A stretch of DNA of 64,000 nucleotides from Pseudomonadota bacterium (GCA_022560695.1 JADFSP010000005.1:296-64295); one strand, 5' to 3'. Positions 30,712 to 37,364 are shown, counted from the stretch's first letter. Program-made: numbers and translations. Notes: a model not told the origin generated them from the sequence alone.

Positions 30712-32871
30712 CTACATCAGATCCAGATTTGCATAGCTCAGAACAAGCCATTTCGTGCCGGCGGTCTCGAAATTTACCTCGACCCTGGTGTGTGCGCCCT
30801 GCCCCTCGCAATTAAGTATGACGCCGTCGCCGAACTTGCGATGCCGCACGCGCTGGCCGAGCCGGATGCCCGGATGTTCCTGCAGTGCGCTCGACTTCGA
30901 GCGGCGCGCCGAGCGCACCGGTCTCGATACCTGCACCCTGGGTCGAATTTCCTCGATGAATTCGTCCGGCACCTCGGCGATGAACCGCGAAGGATGTGAT
31001 AATTTGTCCATGCCGTGCAGGCGGCGCTGTTCCGCGTAGGTCATGTACAGGATCTGCTTGGCGCGTGTTATGCCGACATAGCAAAGCCGCCGCTCCTCCT
31101 CGAGCCCGCCCGGGTCGGCGATGGAGCGTTGATGCGGAAATAATCCATCCTCCATGCCACACAGAAACACGAGCGGAAATTCGAGGCCCTTGGCCGAGTG
31201 CATCGTCATGAGTTGCACGCAGTCGTCCCAGGCGTCCGCCTGGCCTTCGCCTGCCTCGAGTGCGGCGTGCGAAAGAAACTCATCGAGTGGCGACATTTCC
31301 TCGGCCAGGTCGGGCGTGAAACTCTTTGCCGCGCTGACCAGTTCCATCAGGTTCTCGACGCGCGTCTCGCCACGTTCACCCCTGTCCTTCCTGAAAAAAT
31401 CGATCAGACCACTCGCATGAATGGCGTGATCGACCTTGTCCTGCAGATCGAGACCGGAGGTCTCGCGGGCCATGCTCTCGATGAGATTCAGGAAGGCGAG
31501 TACGGCGTTGGCCGCCCGGCTGTTGAGCTCGTCGCTGGCGATTGCCCCGGCGGCGCGCCACATCGAGCAACTGTTTGCGCGTGTGTGTGCACGCATTGCC
31601 TCGACAGTGCGCGCGCCTATGCCACGCGTCGGCCGATTGACGACGCGCTCGAATGCGCTGTCATCATCGCGGTTGGAGATCAGCCGGAGGTAAGCGAGGG
31701 CGTCCTTGATCTCGGCGCGCTCGAAGAAGCGCAGCCCGCCGTAGACCCGATACGGTATTCCTGCGTTGATAAGCCCCTCTTCGAGCACGCGCGACTGCGC
31801 GTTGGAGCGATACAGGACCGCCGCGTCGGCGCGGACGTTACCCTGATCAATCCAGTCGCGCAGGCGGGCGATCACAAAATCCGCTTCGTCGCGTTCGTTG
31901 TAAGCGGCGTACAGCTTGATCGTCTCGCCGTCGGCGCCGTCGGTCCACAGGTTCTTGCCCATGCGAGAATTGTTGTTCGCGATCAGGGCATTCGCGGCAC
32001 CGAGTATCGTGGCCGTGGAGCGATAGTTCTGCTCGAGCTTGACGATCTTCGCGGCAGGGAAATCTTTCTGAAACCTGAGAATGTGCTCGACTCTTGCGCC
32101 ACGCCAGCGATATATGGACTGGTCGTCGTCGCCGACGACAAACGGCACGCCGGTATCTCCGGCGAGCAGCCGCAGCCAGGCGTACTGAATCGCGTTGGTG
32201 TCCTGAAACTCGTCGACGAGCAGATGGCTGAAGCGACGCCGATAGTGCGCGAGCAGTTCCGGATTGTCGCGCCACAGCTCATGCGCCCGCAACAGCAGCT
32301 CCGCGAAATCGACAAGGCCACCGCGCTCGCACAATTCCGCGTAGGCGGCGTACAGTGAAATCATCTGCCGCCGATCGAGGTCTCCGTCGTCGTCGAGATG
32401 CTGATGCCGCAAGCCCTCGTCTTTCTGAGCATTGATGAAATACTGGATTTCGCGCGGCACCCAGCGACTGTCATCGATCTCGAGACTCTTCAGGAGGCGT
32501 TTGATGAGCCGCAACTGATCGTCGGAATCGATGATCTGAAAATTCTGCGGCAACCGGGCCTCGCGCCAGTGCCGCCGAAGCAGGCGATGGGCCAGGCCGT
32601 GAAACGTGCCGATCCAGAGGTGATTGACGGGCATACCGAGCAGAGCCTCGATGCGCCCGCGCATCTCGGCAGCGGCCTTGTTCGTGAACGTAACGGCCAG
32701 CAAGCTTTGCGGTGCAATTCCCACGACATCGATGAGCCACGCGGCTCGATGCACGAGCACGCGCGTCTTGCCGCTGCCGGCGCCCGCAATGACAAGCATC
32801 GGCTCGGCGGGCGACGTCACGGCCTGACGTTGCGCGTCGTTCAGGGACTCGAGGATCGGTGAAACGTCCAT
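30712..32871 (-). CDS. uvrD: DNA helicase II
   Basis: LNDAQRQAV...AGAGSGKT..., DEFQDTN, and a C-terminal HRKFGDG..L motif. ATG at 32871. Confidence 0.9.
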   Translation of the reverse strand: MDVSPILESLNDAQRQAVTSPAEPMLVIAGAGSGKTRVLVHRAAWLIDVVGIAPQSLLAVTFTNKAAAEMRGRIEALLGMPVNHLWIGTFHGLAHRLLRRHWREARLPQNFQIIDSDDQLRLIKRLLKSLEIDDSRWVPREIQYFINAQKDEGLRHQHLDDDGDLDRRQMISLYAAYAELCERGGLVDFAELLLRAHELWRDNPELLAHYRRRFSHLLVDEFQDTNAIQYAWLRLLAGDTGVPFVVGDDDQSIYRWRGARVEHILRFQKDFPAAKIVKLEQNYRSTATILGAANALIANNNSRMGKNLWTDGADGETIKLYAAYNERDEADFVIARLRDWIDQGNVRADAAVLYRSNAQSRVLEEGLINAGIPYRVYGGLRFFERAEIKDALAYLRLISNRDDDSAFERVVNRPTRGIGARTVEAMRAHTRANSCSMWRAAGAIASDELNSRAANAVLAFLNLIESMARETSGLDLQDKVDHAIHASGLIDFFRKDRGERGETRVENLMELVSAAKSFTPDLAEEMSPLDEFLSHAALEAGEGQADAWDDCVQLMTMHSAKGLEFPLVFLCGMEDGLFPHQRSIADPGGLEEERRLCYVGITRAKQILYMTYAEQRRLHGMDKLSHPSRFIAEVPDEFIEEIRPRVQVSRPVRSARRSKSSALQEHPGIRLGQRVRHRKFGDGVILNCEGQGAHTRVEVNFETAGTKWLVLSYANLDLM

Positions 32872-32939
32872 CGGCGGCGAGAATAGCGGCGTTGGTGAAG
32901 CGCGGCAGTTTAGCAAACATAAGCAAACAGATGGCCCTC

Positions 32940-34562
32940 CTACTGTTCCCAGACCACACCGATGACGAACTGGTTACGACTGTAGTCGTTGCGTGTGTCG
33001 TTCGATACCGAGTCACGAAGTTCGAACTCGGCAAGCAGGCTCAGGCGATCCGTCATCCTGTAAGTCGCAGCAACTTCCGCGCGCGTGGCTTCCAGCGTCT
33101 TGTTGCCGATGGCCGGGTCGTTGAAAGCGAACGCATTTGCAAAGTCGTAACTTCGATGGGAGGCCGATACGTCAAGCTTGAAGCGTGCGCCCGCCGACCA
33201 GTGAAATTCGACTTCAAAGGCGTTGCGGATGTAATCATTGTATCCGGCATGTTTGTCCTGTCGGTCGGTACGTTCGTAACCGAAGCCGAACCACATGTTT
33301 GGTGTAATCCGTTGCCGCGCCAGCAGGCCCAGCCCGATATAGTCGTAACGCAGCGTCGCGTTGCCCAGCCGCTGTTGTCCGTCGAGATCGAAGGAGGGGC
33401 GATCACCATAGCGGCGACTCTGTTTTTCGACCGTGAGGCGCAGCAGCGATGACGGCGCGAAACGGTACTGCACGTCGACGCCGAGCAGAAAATACTCGTG
33501 GTCATACCCGGGGGCCGCAACAACATCCTCGTAATTCCACAATTGGCCTTTTAACCGTGCGCCGACTGAAATCTTCTCATGCGACTGGCGGAACTTGATC
33601 TCGGGACCGTAGCGCAGGTAATTCAAGCGATCCCCCACACTGACGCCGCCGACGTTGCGGATGGCGCCGTCATCCGGGTCGTAGTAGGTCTCGTCATGCT
33701 GCGCAACCTTGAAGGCGCTGTACACCTCGCGAGTCCGTGTGCCTTGCTGGCGCCGAAAATGACTGCCGAAACTCGCCTCGTGCACGAACTCGTTGGCGTT
33801 CGTCAGCGCCTTGTCCTGGTAGTAACGGCCCCTGAGACGGTAGGCACCGAAAAACGACTCATGCGGAAGGCTGTTGATCGTGTACTTTGCACGCAGATCG
33901 ATCGGCAGGTACGCGCCGGACTGAATGACGGGAGTGACAAGTGGCAGATTCGGGTCCGCAAAATCGACATACGATATGTCCGGTGCCCGGAATACGTTGC
34001 TGTCATTGCCAAAACTGACGCTGGCACGAAAGTCGAACTCGCCGAGCTTCTTGTGCTTGCGCTGCTGCCCGGGACGCGCCGCGGCAGCATCCGCCTGTCT
34101 GCGCCGCGAGCTTAGCCGGGCGATGGCGCGCCGCGCCAGCTGCGCAATTTTCGTGTTCTGCTGTTGATCGCGCGCCAGCCGGAACCAGCGCAGCGCCTCA
34201 TCGGTATCACCGCCAGCGTACGCATTCAGACCGAGATTGTAGTGCGCCAGGACCCGAAGTCTCGGCGACTCCGCGGCCTTCCGCAGTGACTGCTGCGCAC
34301 GTACGTGTTGTTGCGCGCGGTAATGGGCGACGCCGCGGTTGTAGTGCAACAGCGGCGTGTCCATGCCCTGTTCGGCAGCCTCTTCGTAGCGCAGAAGCGC
34401 GGCCCAATACAGGTCGTCGCGAACCAGCCGGTTGCCCTCGGCAAACAGCTCGCGGGCGGTCTGGGCTAGCGCCGGGCTGACGGCGAGCGAGCATGCCAGG
34501 ATCGCCGCCAGCGCCGCTACGCTACCGGGATACCGGCGCTTCGATGGATTGGTCGTCAACAA
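32940..34562 (-). CDS. outer-membrane protein: signal peptide + TPR domain + large C-terminal beta-barrel
   Basis: TTG start at 34562 or 34559 gives MTTNPSKRRYPGSVAALAAILACSLAVSPALA/QT. TPR-like helices cover about aa 40-170. A basic linker is followed by about 370 aa of alternating-hydrophobicity strands rich in Y/F/R/D/N (SVSFGNDSNVFRAPD...RNQFVIGVVWEQ). Confidence 0.7.
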   Translation of the reverse strand: MLTTNPSKRRYPGSVAALAAILACSLAVSPALAQTARELFAEGNRLVRDDLYWAALLRYEEAAEQGMDTPLLHYNRGVAHYRAQQHVRAQQSLRKAAESPRLRVLAHYNLGLNAYAGGDTDEALRWFRLARDQQQNTKIAQLARRAIARLSSRRRQADAAAARPGQQRKHKKLGEFDFRASVSFGNDSNVFRAPDISYVDFADPNLPLVTPVIQSGAYLPIDLRAKYTINSLPHESFFGAYRLRGRYYQDKALTNANEFVHEASFGSHFRRQQGTRTREVYSAFKVAQHDETYYDPDDGAIRNVGGVSVGDRLNYLRYGPEIKFRQSHEKISVGARLKGQLWNYEDVVAAPGYDHEYFLLGVDVQYRFAPSSLLRLTVEKQSRRYGDRPSFDLDGQQRLGNATLRYDYIGLGLLARQRITPNMWFGFGYERTDRQDKHAGYNDYIRNAFEVEFHWSAGARFKLDVSASHRSYDFANAFAFNDPAIGNKTLEATRAEVAATYRMTDRLSLLAEFELRDSVSNDTRNDYSRNQFVIGVVWEQ

Positions 34563-34641
34563 GAAAAGCTGCGCTCCCGCCGCCTGCGTTATGTCAGCTG
34601 CAAGAATCACCGAAAATGCGCGCAAAAACCATGACGTAGCG

Positions 34642-34679
34642 CAAGAAAATCCCCCCCGCCTGTAAATCAGGCGGGGGGG
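34642..34679 (-). terminator. strong GC hairpin + T-tract (terminator/attenuator) between the acidic-protein gene and the OMP gene
   Basis: 12-bp stem cccccccgcctg/caggcggggggg with a 5-nt loop. On the minus strand it is followed by ATTTTCTT. Confidence 0.6.
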
Positions 34680-34735
34680 CAGTTGTTCGGAGTCGTGTGT
34701 TGATCGGCCAGCCGATCAATGATTGCCCTGGCGGC

Positions 34736-35170
34736 TCAGTCGATGCCGTCACCACTCTCGTCACCCGATTCTTCGCCGCTCATGCCGTCCTCGACGACAT
34801 CGTCTTCGACATGCTCGTCATCCTCGAAATCACCGTCTTCCTCGAGGTCATCTTCTTCCTCGAATTCACTCTCGCCATCGAAGCCATCGTCGCCGTCGCC
34901 GTCATCGTCCAGCTCATTCGCGAGGTCGTCATCGACATCGCCGTCATCAGCCTCGTCGCTTTCGTCGTCGCCGTCGGTGCCGCCATTCGACTCGTTGCTC
35001 TCGGGACCACGCATTTCGGCCATCATGCCGTCGAGATCGGCATCGTCATCGAGAACCTCCATCGTGACGTCGAAACCCTCGAGGTCGTCATCGTCGGCAC
35101 GCACAGTGGCCGGAAACATAGCCAGGCACGTCAGTGCCAGTGTCCAGACAAACACGTGTAAATGTTTCAT
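34736..35170 (-). CDS. secreted hyper-acidic low-complexity protein
   Basis: GGAG is 7 nt before the ATG. Signal peptide MKHLHVFVWTLALTCLAMFPATVRA. The mature 119 aa contain 61 Asp/Glu, one Arg and one His. Confidence 0.6.
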   Translation of the reverse strand: MKHLHVFVWTLALTCLAMFPATVRADDDDLEGFDVTMEVLDDDADLDGMMAEMRGPESNESNGGTDGDDESDEADDGDVDDDLANELDDDGDGDDGFDGESEFEEEDDLEEDGDFEDDEHVEDDVVEDGMSGEESGDESGDGID

Positions 35171-35216
35171 GGCATTACTCCATTAACAATTTGCGGACAT
35201 CCGGTCCGCCTTGAAT

Positions 35217-35852
35217 TCAGGATACGTCCACGCGCAGGCGGAACGTCCGGTTGCGCTCATTGTGTTGCAAGTGCGCGATCAGCTCGCCGCCTGTCGGGGT
35301 CAGCGCCACGAGCGTCAGTGGCAACAGGTTTCGGCCCGCCTTGAGGCTTGTTGTCCACGTAATCTCGCGCTGCCCCGGGAAACCGGCAAGTTCGATGCCG
35401 TCGGGCAACGACAAGGTCAGCGTCGCACCGTCCAGCGCTGTTGCCGATGCGAACACGAGGTTGATCGTGCGCTCCTCTTCGAGCGCAATGGTCACGCCCG
35501 GTATCGACGCGAGCGCGTCGGGCGTCTGCGGCACATCCGGCAACAGGCCGAAGATCACCCAGGCAGCGAGCCCCGCCGCGACGGCCGAGCCAAAGCCACT
35601 CAATAGCCAGCGATTGCGCTGCCGGCGGCCGCCTTTGTGCGTTGCGCGCACAAGGGCTCGATCGTAGAAACCTGCCTGAGCCTGTGGCACGGGATAATCT
35701 CCTAGCAATCCACGCAGTTCGCGCGCGCGCTCGATGACGGCGCGGCAGGTCTCACAGGTTCCGGCATGGCTTGCAATCGCCTCTGCTGTCGCCTGATCCA
35801 GACCACCATCCATGTAGTCATCGAGCTTCTCGGTTAAGTCTTTGCAGTGCAT
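35217..35852 (-). CDS. anti-sigma factor (zf-HC2), single-pass membrane protein
   Basis: N-terminal H-x3-C-x2-C (HAGTCETC), a TM helix (WLLSGFGSAVAAGLAAWVIFGLL) and a periplasmic domain of about 110 aa. Confidence 0.8.
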   Translation of the reverse strand: MHCKDLTEKLDDYMDGGLDQATAEAIASHAGTCETCRAVIERARELRGLLGDYPVPQAQAGFYDRALVRATHKGGRRQRNRWLLSGFGSAVAAGLAAWVIFGLLPDVPQTPDALASIPGVTIALEEERTINLVFASATALDGATLTLSLPDGIELAGFPGQREITWTTSLKAGRNLLPLTLVALTPTGGELIAHLQHNERNRTFRLRVDVS

Positions 35853-35887
35853 AGTGTTTTCCTGCTTATTCCCTTACACGCAGCAGC

Positions 35888-36427
35888 TCAGGAAAAGGTT
35901 CCATCGGGGCTCAATATATCCCGCAGACGCGCCCTGGCGCGGTGCAGGCGTGACTTGATGGTGCCGACCGGAACACCGGTAATATCCTGAATTTCCTTGA
36001 GTTTATAGCCTTCGGTATCGTGCAGTAGCACGATCAGGCGATGCTCCTCGCTGAGCTGACCCAACGCCGCGTCGAGCCGCATGAGGTTCTCCAGGCGCTC
36101 GATGTCGGTCACAGGATCCAGGTCGCCGGCGAGGTCCGCCAGCCCCGCTCCCGGCAAATGCCCCTCATCAACGAGGTGCATGCGCTGGCGCGTGTAGCGC
36201 CGGTGCTGATCCACGAACAGGTTGTACATAACACGGCTGAGCCAGGAGCCGGGCTCCTCGATCGCAACGAGATCGTCAAGCAAGCCGTAGGCCTTGACGA
36301 GCAACTCCTGGAAAAGATCCTCGGCTTCGGCCTTGTTGCCGGTCAGCCGCCACGCGAGGCGATACAGGCGGTCGAAATGCGGCCGCACGATGCGCTCGAA
36401 GTTGAGATTCTGCTCCGCATTGCTCAT
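35888..36427 (-). CDS. ECF-family RNA polymerase sigma factor
   Basis: Region 2 (FDRLYRLAWRLTGNKAEAEDLFQELLVKAY) and region 4 (GYKLKEIQDITGVPVGTIKSRLHRARARL). ATG at 36427. Confidence 0.85.
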   Translation of the reverse strand: MSNAEQNLNFERIVRPHFDRLYRLAWRLTGNKAEAEDLFQELLVKAYGLLDDLVAIEEPGSWLSRVMYNLFVDQHRRYTRQRMHLVDEGHLPGAGLADLAGDLDPVTDIERLENLMRLDAALGQLSEEHRLIVLLHDTEGYKLKEIQDITGVPVGTIKSRLHRARARLRDILSPDGTFS

Positions 36428-36563
36428 TGTGCGATCGAGTGTATCGTCAGGCAGGCTTGCCGCAAGGATGCGTTCGGCACTTCGTAGCGATCGCTGCAGC
36501 CGCCAGGCTGTACGATCTGCGAGGTGCGCGGACCATGAGCGCAGGGCGGGATGAGGGATTTTC

Positions 36564-37364
36564 ATGATCGATCAATGCAGACTGTGTGGGGGCGGCAATC
36601 TGCGCCAATGGATGCTGGACGGCCGCAATCGTGACCTCGTCTACTACAAATGCGCCGACTGTTCGCTGTGGAACTACGATCTCGACTGCGGCGTCGATCA
36701 AACCCAGTACACGGAAACCTACGTCAGCCCGGAGGACACGGGCCACAAGTTCAATGTCGGCATTCGGCAGAGCTGGGAGTTTCTGCGCAAGTATGCACCG
36801 GTACCAGGTTCGATCATGGATATCGGTTGCGGCAGCGCCTGCCTGCTTTATCTTGCGCGAAAAGAGGGATGGCGCGTGCGCGGCATGGAACTGACGCAAC
36901 AGGCGGCGGACGATATCCGCGAGGACCAGGGCATTGACGTCATCGTCGCGAACTTCCTCGAATACGACAATCCCGACGCGGAGTTATACGACGTTGTCGT
37001 GTTACGCCACGTACTCGAGCATCTCCCCGATTCGATCCTGGCCATGCAAAACATTGGCCGCCTGTTGAAGGACGACGGCCTGGCGCTGCTGGAGTTTCCG
37101 AATACACGTTCGTACAGCTATGCAGTCAAACGAATTCTGAAGAATCGCGGCCTCAGAAACAAAAAATTCTCGGCGGACTGGCGGCCCGGCCACTGCAACG
37201 AGTTTTGCCGCGAGTCGTTTGAATATCTGCTCGCCAGGACCGGCTTCGAGCTGGTGATCTGGCGAACTTACTCGAGCAAGCCGTTCGCGAACGTGTTCTA
37301 CCGGTACGTCCCGATAGCCAGCAAGGCGCGCGCTCTGGTACGCAAGAAAGCGACAGCAGCTTAA
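36564..37364 (+). CDS. class I SAM-dependent methyltransferase with N-terminal CxxC...CxxC zinc ribbon
   Basis: CRLCGG...CADCSLWNY, then IMDIGCGSACLL (motif I) and VVVLRHVLEHLPD. Confidence 0.75.
   Translation: MIDQCRLCGGGNLRQWMLDGRNRDLVYYKCADCSLWNYDLDCGVDQTQYTETYVSPEDTGHKFNVGIRQSWEFLRKYAPVPGSIMDIGCGSACLLYLARKEGWRVRGMELTQQAADDIREDQGIDVIVANFLEYDNPDAELYDVVVLRHVLEHLPDSILAMQNIGRLLKDDGLALLEFPNTRSYSYAVKRILKNRGLRNKKFSADWRPGHCNEFCRESFEYLLARTGFELVIWRTYSSKPFANVFYRYVPIASKARALVRKKATAA

Follow-up and report, generated by a model that had tools for sequence, protein, structure and literature searches.

The question raised by positions 32940-36427 of a 64,000-nucleotide stretch of Pseudomonadota DNA (GCA_022560695.1, JADFSP010000005.1:296-64295; the window, by which the whole stretch is meant) is which of the genes found there belong together and what they do in the cell envelope. 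A first-pass annotation had read them as a single compact unit of four co-directional genes and as a candidate undescribed export module. We confirmed the four open reading frames (ORFs), all on the minus strand and at the coordinates it had proposed:

35888-36427, minus strand: extracytoplasmic function (ECF) sigma factor, 179 aa, with Pfam matches to Sigma70_r2, r4_2 and Sigma70_ECF
35217-35852, minus strand: single-pass anti-sigma factor, 211 aa, Pfam zf-HC2 at 31.9 bits
34736-35170, minus strand: small secreted polyanionic protein, 144 aa, with a predicted signal peptide and an Asp/Glu (D/E)-rich tail
32940-34562, minus strand: outer-membrane protein (OMP), 540 aa, with a predicted signal peptide, a tetratricopeptide repeat (TPR) domain and a 16-strand beta-barrel

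The protein descriptions in that annotation likewise held. The 144-aa signal-peptide protein, said to be about half Asp and Glu in its mature part, contains 42% D/E overall and approximately 50% in the 119-aa mature part; the OMP of about 540 aa carries the signal peptide, TPR domain and C-terminal barrel of about 370 aa ascribed to it; and the ECF sigma factor is accompanied by a zf-HC2 anti-sigma factor with one transmembrane (TM) helix, whose periplasmic domain, estimated at about 110 aa, measures 107 aa. The single compact unit did not survive, as a conserved terminator between the acidic ORF and the OMP gene points to two transcription units. Judged by sequence, the source organism is within or near Woeseiaceae, and relatives of the OMP were drawn from Woeseiaceae and unclassified gammaproteobacterial metagenome-assembled genomes (MAGs), comprising at least 190 species-level genomes. 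Across these loci, the acidic signal-peptide protein and the OMP with its TPR domain and 16-strand barrel form an obligate genomic pair.

In the Woeseiaceae clade, the gene order is sigma, anti-sigma, acidic ORF, OMP, uvrD and trkA. Sigma and anti-sigma genes stood ahead of the small ORF in 67 of the 71 testable loci of our first set, and in 72 of 77 Woeseiaceae-clade loci uvrD followed the OMP gene at a distance of no more than 3 kb, an arrangement not found in a more distant clade. Because the flanks of the Woeseiaceae loci are syntenic too, with cox/UbiA genes on one side and UvrD/TrkA/TrkH genes on the other, this order alone proves little, although the interval between UbiA and the sigma gene varies among Woeseiaceae while the module stays intact. 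The distant clade (loci L086-L089) has OMPs approximately 37% identical to that of the window, and its flanks are unrelated. In two of its loci, L087 and L088, the neighbors are LysR, DUF4404 and a solute-binding protein to one side and a two-component system and TonB_C proteins to the other, yet the ECF sigma factor, the zf-HC2 anti-sigma factor, an ORF of approximately 145 aa and the OMP are encoded one after another in the same sequence as in the window; the remaining two, L086 and L089, lack sigma and anti-sigma genes, and the small ORF still lies directly upstream of the OMP gene. In all four, the small ORF encodes a signal peptide followed by DGLDVTMxVLDDVxDVD, as in Woeseiaceae. The neighborhood comparison that the first-pass annotation had called for therefore came out in favor of a module, with the same four-gene order recurring at about 37% identity amid unrelated flanks, and this distant clade is, as far as sequence can tell, the decisive evidence that the module is more than synteny.

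Absence of the regulators was not confined to the distant clade. Four Woeseiaceae-clade loci (L037, L041, L069, and L081) contain the small ORF and the OMP gene without sigma or anti-sigma genes, as does L172, a long contig of Woeseiaceae-like synteny, in which a RibD_C gene on the opposite strand is inserted between the two. Wherever the upstream sequence sufficed, the small ORF accompanied the OMP gene, and it was directly adjacent in all loci except L172. The converse search, a metagenome scan seeded only with the motif of the small protein, yielded 80 loci (the motif-anchored set), in which the OMP gene was downstream in 37 of 37 testable loci, and an anti-sigma gene and a sigma gene were upstream in 66 of 68 and 45 of 45, respectively. 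Since the pair persists in loci without sigma and anti-sigma genes, gene neighborhoods indicate that the conserved core is the small protein plus the OMP and that the ECF pair is a frequent accessory, not the essential part it had been taken for (it is missing in L037, L041, L069, L081, L086, L089, and L172, all of which keep the small ORF and the OMP gene). The outcome that would have counted against a module, OMP genes that never adjoin an ECF pair or an acidic ORF, was not seen, given the 67 of 71 loci with the ECF pair and an acidic ORF that is always there. Of 90 loci, just 5 have the methyltransferase gene and 8 the EamA gene beside the sigma gene; the earlier annotation had tentatively assigned both to the same regulon, and they were rejected as module members on this neighborhood frequency.

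The acidic protein is divided into three parts:

35096-35170, minus strand: signal peptide
35003-35083, minus strand: conserved motif, LEGFDVTMEVLDD...EMRGP
34739-35002, minus strand: variable D/E-rich tail

Across loci, the conserved motif takes the form LDVTMxVLDD...MRGP, within approximately 30 conserved residues at the mature N terminus; hydrophobic and acidic residues alternate in this segment, and D34, T36, M37, and D41 are invariant. By comparison, the proteins range from 102 to 224 aa in length and from 26 to 58% in D/E content, with 39-58% in most Woeseiaceae-clade members versus 26-36% in the distant clade. The protein matched no family in Pfam or NCBIfam. Its signal peptide, invariant N-terminal motif and length-variable, low-complexity tail fit a short recognition element followed by a putatively disordered polyanionic payload. 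A GGAG Shine-Dalgarno sequence sits 8 nt ahead of its ATG. That the acidic ORF might not be a conserved frame at all, the other concern voiced beforehand, is answered by the frame and motif being conserved beside every OMP examined. Although its signal peptide contains a Cys, that residue lacks both conservation and a lipobox context, and we rejected a lipoprotein. The plus strand opposite the acidic gene (34697-35186) also has long ORFs of 154-155 aa, including a Ser-rich one, which were dismissed as a by-product of the GA-rich codon repeats of that gene. Two small ORFs have features of their own. In L172 (L172:4825-7629), the motif-bearing ORF reads LEDLEVTMEVVD, and in L086 (L086:6560-7000), the signal peptide, the DGLDVTMRVLDD motif and the acidic C terminus are each in a different frame, suggestive of either a pseudogene or an assembly error.

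The OMP likewise comprises three predicted parts:

34467-34562, minus strand: signal peptide
34092-34457, minus strand: TPR domain of 8 helices (about 3-4 TPRs), residues 36-157
32943-34043, minus strand: 16-strand beta-barrel, residues 174-540

An AlphaFold2 model of the window OMP (mean predicted local distance difference test score, pLDDT, 79.6) places 16 long strands, joined by 8 loops and 7 turns, after a set of 8 helices, and a second AlphaFold model, of the 37%-identity relative P0131 (pLDDT 84.5), has the same topology; the latter was built on a two-clade alignment independently of the window model. The strand count suggested as a check thus gave 16 in both models. Assigning the protein to a family was less straightforward. 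More than 1,300 cluster representatives matched the OMP at E <= 1e-3. A PDB sequence search with the OMP profile returned TPR proteins only, over residues 33-135, and no relative of the barrel. Among Pfam and NCBIfam profiles, SlipAM (PF04575) scored 30 bits against a gathering cut-off of 22, covering profile positions 2-229 of 288, whereas BBP2_2 (PF10082) scored 14.5 bits against 23.7 and EpsL (TIGR03014) 23.4 against 275; TPR_Slam (PF24575) and the BcsC, PgaA and AlgE families had no match at E <= 0.1. SlipAM was matched by only 1 of 23 close family members (E < 0.01) and BBP2_2 by 13 of 23; of the distant relatives, P0131 reached 27 bits on SlipAM, and the rest matched BBP2_2 weakly or nothing. 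The profile searches recommended by the first-pass annotation therefore bore out a SlipAM hit above cut-off for the window OMP, but not as a property of its family, and no BcsC or PgaA match. Foldseek, which is only suggestive here and too weak for family assignment, ranked BcsC first and AlgE next for the P0131 model and gave BcsC as the best whole-architecture match for the window model, and no Slam entry was among the 50 best matches listed for either. The eight predicted extracellular loops of the barrel (32943-34043) are Asp-rich, with 16 Asp and a net charge of -9, and cation binding at these surface loops is possible.

Further information on function came from homologs that lack the TPR domain. 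In a representative search, many barrel-only proteins of about 400 aa matched OMP residues 173-539 at 25-32% identity, such as P0177 (E 4e-45, 31% identity over residues 173-539). Genomic context was readable for four of them (L170, L171, L173, and L174). In three, the gene for the barrel, of about 400 aa, closes a four-gene operon whose first three products are a 7TM_transglut protein (inactive transglutaminase), an ATPgrasp_ST/RimK-like ligase and a protein of 618-633 aa; the third product is multi-TPR by scan in L170 and L171 and measures 633 aa in L173. These operons, from Mariprofundaceae (L170) and other MAGs, are as follows:

L170:1525-7212: RloB-like, RloC-like, TPR and barrel genes
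L171:1628-7224: RloB-like, RloC-like, TPR and barrel genes
L173:2588-8194: RloB-like, RloC-like, presumed TPR and barrel genes

In Pseudomonas aeruginosa, the counterparts of the first two genes are RloB and RloC. In that species, loss of rloB or rloC suppresses the defects of mutants without secreted retropepsins, enzymes that cleave runs of at least 8 Glu, and the authors suspected a polyglutamate-like envelope substrate; Rlo also affects stress tolerance and biofilm formation, and the rlo operon as described has no OMP gene (PMC11957051). The RloB/RloC/TPR/barrel operon, which seems not to be described in the Rlo paper (PMC11957051), looks like a complete trans-envelope pathway for the Rlo product. 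In the fourth context (L174:3872-13131), the barrel gene adjoins genes for a 795-aa TPR protein and four glycosyltransferases. This barrel is the most distant one examined, with 28% identity to P0177, and part of the barrel superfamily may serve polysaccharide export. The barrel family is thus, to judge from these gene neighborhoods, repeatedly coupled to a TPR module and polymer-making machinery, and the polymer is apparently a polyanionic polypeptide in three of the four barrel-only contexts. These contexts parallel the gene-encoded, D/E-rich partner in the lineage of the window, and they are the independent evidence that speaks most strongly for export.

Both the regulators and the transcription signals bear on how the pair would be used, and the elements concerned are as follows:

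35742-35846, minus strand: zf-HC2 domain of the anti-sigma factor, H29-x3-C33-x2-C36
35220-35540, minus strand: periplasmic domain of the anti-sigma factor, 107 aa, conserved in both clades
34641-34679, minus strand: intrinsic-terminator-like hairpin and T-run (terminator scan), 12-bp stem with 11 G-C pairs
34586-34645, minus strand: conserved non-coding region ahead of the OMP gene, consisting of a box TTGCGCTACGTCATGGTTTT, then CGGTGATTCTTG, then CTGACATAACGC
36438-36468, minus strand: candidate promoter of the sigma operon, TCCTTGCGG-N16-TACACT, ending 10 nt ahead of the ATG

The sigma factor has regions 2 and 4 and no region 3, and it adjoins an anti-sigma factor with H-x3-C-x2-C, the pattern of class I (zf-HC2); its closest solved relatives are SigH and SigE of M. 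tuberculosis (E ~1e-24). A 225-aa version of its ORF, reaching 36565, was rejected in favor of the 179-aa version because homologs measure 170-179 aa and because, in a subset of loci, the extension contains a promoter-like conserved motif. The anti-sigma factor has one TM helix (residues 82-104), and its periplasmic domain had no Pfam family and, by PDB sequence search, no solved relative. When the anti-sigma genes in loci L001-L169 were surveyed, just 17 of the 122 distinct sequences had H-x3-C-x2-C, and these measured about 212 aa, whereas the other 105 were about 181 aa long and lacked the N-terminal 30 or so residues bearing the zinc-binding motif. Besides the window, the distant clade and a minority of Woeseiaceae have the motif, and the truncated homologs still conserve the TM helix and the periplasmic domain.

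Because the gap between the anti-sigma and acidic genes is only 46 nt and holds the Shine-Dalgarno sequence, the sigma, anti-sigma and acidic genes are read as one predicted operon. A strict pattern detects the hairpin proper, at 34679-34651 between the acidic ORF and the OMP gene, in 70 of 76 loci, and inspection by eye adds 3 more; the stems of the hairpin covary, and it is also found in the distant locus L087. This predicted terminator ends the sigma/anti-sigma/acidic operon and leaves the OMP gene as a putative separate transcription unit. Directly past it, a box (written TTGCGCYACGTCATRGTTT or TTGCGCYACGTCATRGTTTT) is invariant in 76 of 76 Woeseiaceae-clade loci, followed by two conserved blocks, CCGGTACTCTT and CTGACATAACGC. 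Loci that lack the sigma gene or the hairpin (L069, L073, and L081) keep the box, which is absent from the distant clade; it occurs once in the 64-kb window, with no further copies there, so no regulon is defined by it. As an Rfam search of 32500-37000 at E <= 1 returned nothing relevant, the box does not belong to a known RNA family, and region 34586-34645 is a candidate promoter, operator or 5' leader. Downstream, uvrD (30712-32916, minus strand) starts 24 nt past the OMP stop codon on the same strand; no terminator was found between that stop and the uvrD start, and co-transcription of the two genes is possible.

As for the sigma gene, a motif TCCTTG-N17-TA(C/G)ACT is located at the same spot upstream in 26 of 68 loci by a strict pattern, and it looks like a sigma-70 rather than an ECF promoter. 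At its start (36425-36443), the sigma gene has no Shine-Dalgarno sequence, and the -10 candidate TACACT ends 10 nt ahead of its ATG; the gene appears nearly leaderless. No AAC...CGT-type ECF motif common to the regions upstream of the sigma, acidic and OMP genes was found, nor any motif common to those of the sigma and OMP genes, and an ECF-type promoter, which the first-pass annotation had suggested looking for ahead of each, was established for none of the three. One could read a promoter, GGATT-N18-GTT, across the terminator arm and the box ahead of the OMP gene, but this is speculative; L073, a locus with the sigma gene, lacks its -35 part.

Taking these data together, we favor the OMP as an outer-membrane exporter of polyanionic polymers whose cargo in this lineage would be the gene-encoded acidic protein, and we give this reading a probability of roughly 45%. 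In such a pathway, Sec would bring the small protein into the periplasm, as its signal peptide suggests, and its mature N terminus, LDVTMxVLDD...MRGP, might act as a recognition handle for the TPR domain or the barrel of the OMP. From there, the disordered polyanionic tail would cross the outer membrane through the 16-strand barrel and would end up either released or displayed on the surface. Transport would proceed in the mode of BcsC, PgaA and AlgK/AlgE rather than in that of Slam, with a barrel family specialized in polymer export and a lineage that uses a gene-encoded polyanion instead of an enzyme-made product. The ECF sigma factor and its membrane-bound anti-sigma factor may add an optional layer that couples expression to an envelope signal. 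The earlier view of the polyanionic protein as the only candidate cargo held, and we see nothing else that would be credible as cargo or partner of the OMP. A broader claim, in which TPR-associated members of this barrel family constitute an undescribed secretion route for polyanionic polypeptides, whether gene-encoded, disordered D/E-rich proteins as in Woeseiaceae and relatives or polyglutamate-like chains made by the ATP-grasp enzymes of RloBC operons, we consider on balance rather unlikely.

Several observations weigh against the export reading. Export of the acidic protein is argued from adjacency and analogy; a strong, conserved terminator parts the cargo gene from the exporter gene, and the cargo gene is placed in the operon of the regulator and not with the exporter. 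No RloB or RloC homolog is encoded in the 64-kb window, and the polyglutamate link depends on three loci and a preprint without an identified Rlo product. In the Foldseek comparison, template modeling scores to BcsC and AlgE were 0.34-0.46, and generic porins scored alike. Electrostatics were of little help either. Lumen-facing positions were assigned from the alternation of hydrophobic residues, a crude method, by which the net lumen charge was +3 to +12 in all 23 Woeseiaceae-clade members, and eight lumen basic positions were at least 80% basic (six of them at least 90%) in both the full-length and barrel-only groups; the Asp-rich loops (net -9) contrast with these basic residues. However, the lumen charge was negative in P0131 (-11), P0275 (-6), and P0394 (-4); lumen charge did not covary with partner acidity (rho 0.12, p 0.26, n=83); and the positive charge of the TPR domain is peculiar to the OMP of the window. 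The OMP of L086 has one of the most negative lumen charges (-6). The inspection of pore charge urged by the first-pass annotation thus bore out a positive lumen within the Woeseiaceae clade (23 of 23) and failed in P0131, P0275 and P0394, and we abandoned the argument from an electropositive pore; weak as they are, the electrostatics appear neither to support nor to refute export.

The position of the acidic gene in the sigma/anti-sigma operon, with a terminator before the OMP gene, would suit a regulatory module, in which the whole is a four-part envelope-stress signaling system, the acidic protein being a periplasmic ligand or co-regulator of the anti-sigma factor and the OMP a sensor or regulon member. 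RseB, MucB and CpxP are models for such a periplasmic co-regulator. The 107-aa periplasmic domain, conserved in both clades with no assigned ligand, accords with this, as does the frequency of the regulators (both in 67 of 71 loci of the first set; 66 of 68 for anti-sigma and 45 of 45 for sigma among motif-anchored loci). Nevertheless, the small ORF and the OMP gene occur together without sigma and anti-sigma genes in the seven loci L037, L041, L069, L081, L086, L089, and L172, whereas sigma and anti-sigma genes with the small ORF and without the OMP gene were never seen (OMP 37 of 37), and in the 105 of 122 anti-sigma factors without a zinc-finger N terminus sequestration may be weakened while the pair is kept; we hold a regulatory module to be unlikely. 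The same terminator fits an OMP that exports another polymer whose synthesis is encoded elsewhere in the genome, such as a polysaccharide or an ATP-grasp product, with the acidic protein as a periplasmic plug, chaperone or gate. Homologous barrels do accompany enzymatic polymer-synthesis genes, and both the length and the composition of the acidic tail (26-58% D/E) show little conservation. Such an arrangement is decidedly improbable in our view, as no synthase, glycosyltransferase or ATP-grasp gene is linked to the OMP in the TPR-fused loci examined, the window has no RloB/RloC homolog, and the small protein is the only invariant neighbor.

A divergent Slam/DUF560 protein of the type XI secretion system (T11SS), with the acidic protein as a new type of T11SS cargo, would explain the SlipAM scores (30 bits versus 22 for the window OMP, and 27 bits for P0131), the short N-terminal TPR domain as in NilB and Slam (residues 36-157, in line with the ~140-aa criterion) ahead of a C-terminal barrel, and the adjoining Sec-dependent candidate cargo; an ATP source is not evident. 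T11SS barrels, however, are defined as 14-stranded, with cargo bearing a C-terminal 8-strand barrel, and 16-stranded PgaA-like proteins with weak PF04575 matches were removed by the curators (Grossman et al., PMC8406197). Our OMP has 16 predicted strands versus 14; SlipAM is found in 1 of 23 members versus 13 of 23 for BBP2_2, with no TPR_Slam match at E <= 0.1; and the partner has no 8-strand barrel, TbpBBD or hemophilin-like domain and is not a lipoprotein, nor is there a TonB-dependent receptor context. Because strand number and cargo type both depart from those of Slam, we did not file the OMP as T11SS, contrary to one of the affiliations first considered. On the predicted structures, it is not a bona fide Slam/T11SS protein, and a T11SS assignment is very improbable. 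Annotation calls for caution here, as scoring above the SlipAM gathering cut-off is not in itself enough for a protein to count as a T11SS component. To the view that the adjacency is inherited synteny in one family with no functional link, we give next to no credence. It draws on the synteny of the whole Woeseiaceae region, including uvrD downstream in 72 of 77 loci, but the four-gene order or its two-gene core recurs in the 37%-identity clade with different flanks, and the UbiA-to-sigma segment varies in Woeseiaceae with the module intact; the distant-clade loci refute this view in large part.

The export reading has to be placed among known systems. BcsC, PgaA and AlgK/AlgE conduct a linear, often polyanionic polymer. 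They combine periplasmic TPRs with a 16-18-strand barrel, comparable to the TPR domain and 16 predicted strands here, and the barrel homologs that are split from a large TPR protein and lie beside polymer-synthesis genes resemble AlgK/AlgE in particular. The OMP differs from BcsC and PgaA in having no sequence-family match (E <= 0.1) and a TPR domain of only about 120 aa. It differs from all of these exporters in that the candidate cargo is ribosomally made and in that an inner-membrane synthase is absent from the window locus and from every TPR-fused locus examined; a synthase-linked context was seen only for the barrel-only homologs, with RloB/RloC-like genes (L170, L171, and L173) or glycosyltransferases (L174). 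The likeness to RloABC lies in these homologs, whose genes directly follow RloB-like, RloC-like and TPR genes (L170, L171, and L173), and in the suspected polyglutamate-like product, which is chemically similar to the D/E-rich tail, whereas here the polyanion is gene-encoded and the window has no RloB/RloC homolog. BBP2_2/EpsL proteins share a weak similarity of the C-terminal barrel (13 of 23 members, and distant relatives) and, as putative porins of exopolysaccharide loci, a polymer-export context, but the window OMP falls below the cut-offs with only the last strands matched, and BBP2_2/EpsL proteins have no fused TPR. As in FecI-FecR-FecA and SigX-CfrX-CmpX-OprF, an ECF sigma factor, a membrane anti-sigma factor and an OMP are encoded together. 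Unlike in FecIRA, the OMP is not a TonB-dependent transducer and the anti-sigma factor is of the zf-HC2 and not the FecR type, and no Pfam matches to Plug, TonB_dep_Rec or FecR domains were found in the window proteins; further differences from FecIRA and SigX-type systems are that the sigma factor is closest to SigH/SigE and that the sigma and anti-sigma factors are dispensable for the pairing of the small protein with the OMP.

The claim that the combination is undescribed agrees with the literature searched, in which we found no T11SS or ECF paper describing it. DUF560 was combined with sigma factors in no paper found; neither ECF control nor acidic cargo came up in the T11SS literature searched; this gene context did not appear in the main text of the ECF reclassification paper; and a Woeseiales transcriptome paper was uninformative on the module. 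By sequence and analogy, the combination may be placed among TPR-coupled outer-membrane polymer exporters, with no prior description in the literature searched.

The module is near to a core-genome feature of Woeseiaceae, an abundant lineage of marine sediments. If the pair exports a gene-encoded polyanion, it would provide a simple two-gene route by which a charged, disordered protein is moved beyond the outer membrane, and plausible roles would include binding of Ca, Mg, Fe or Mn, surface charge, hydration and protection against cationic compounds. The barrel homology is a testable lead on the Rlo product and its export path. Were the broader secretion route for polyanionic polypeptides to hold, Gram-negative bacteria would gain a polyanionic surface layer made of protein, and the Rlo system would gain both its missing outer-membrane step and a clue to its product.

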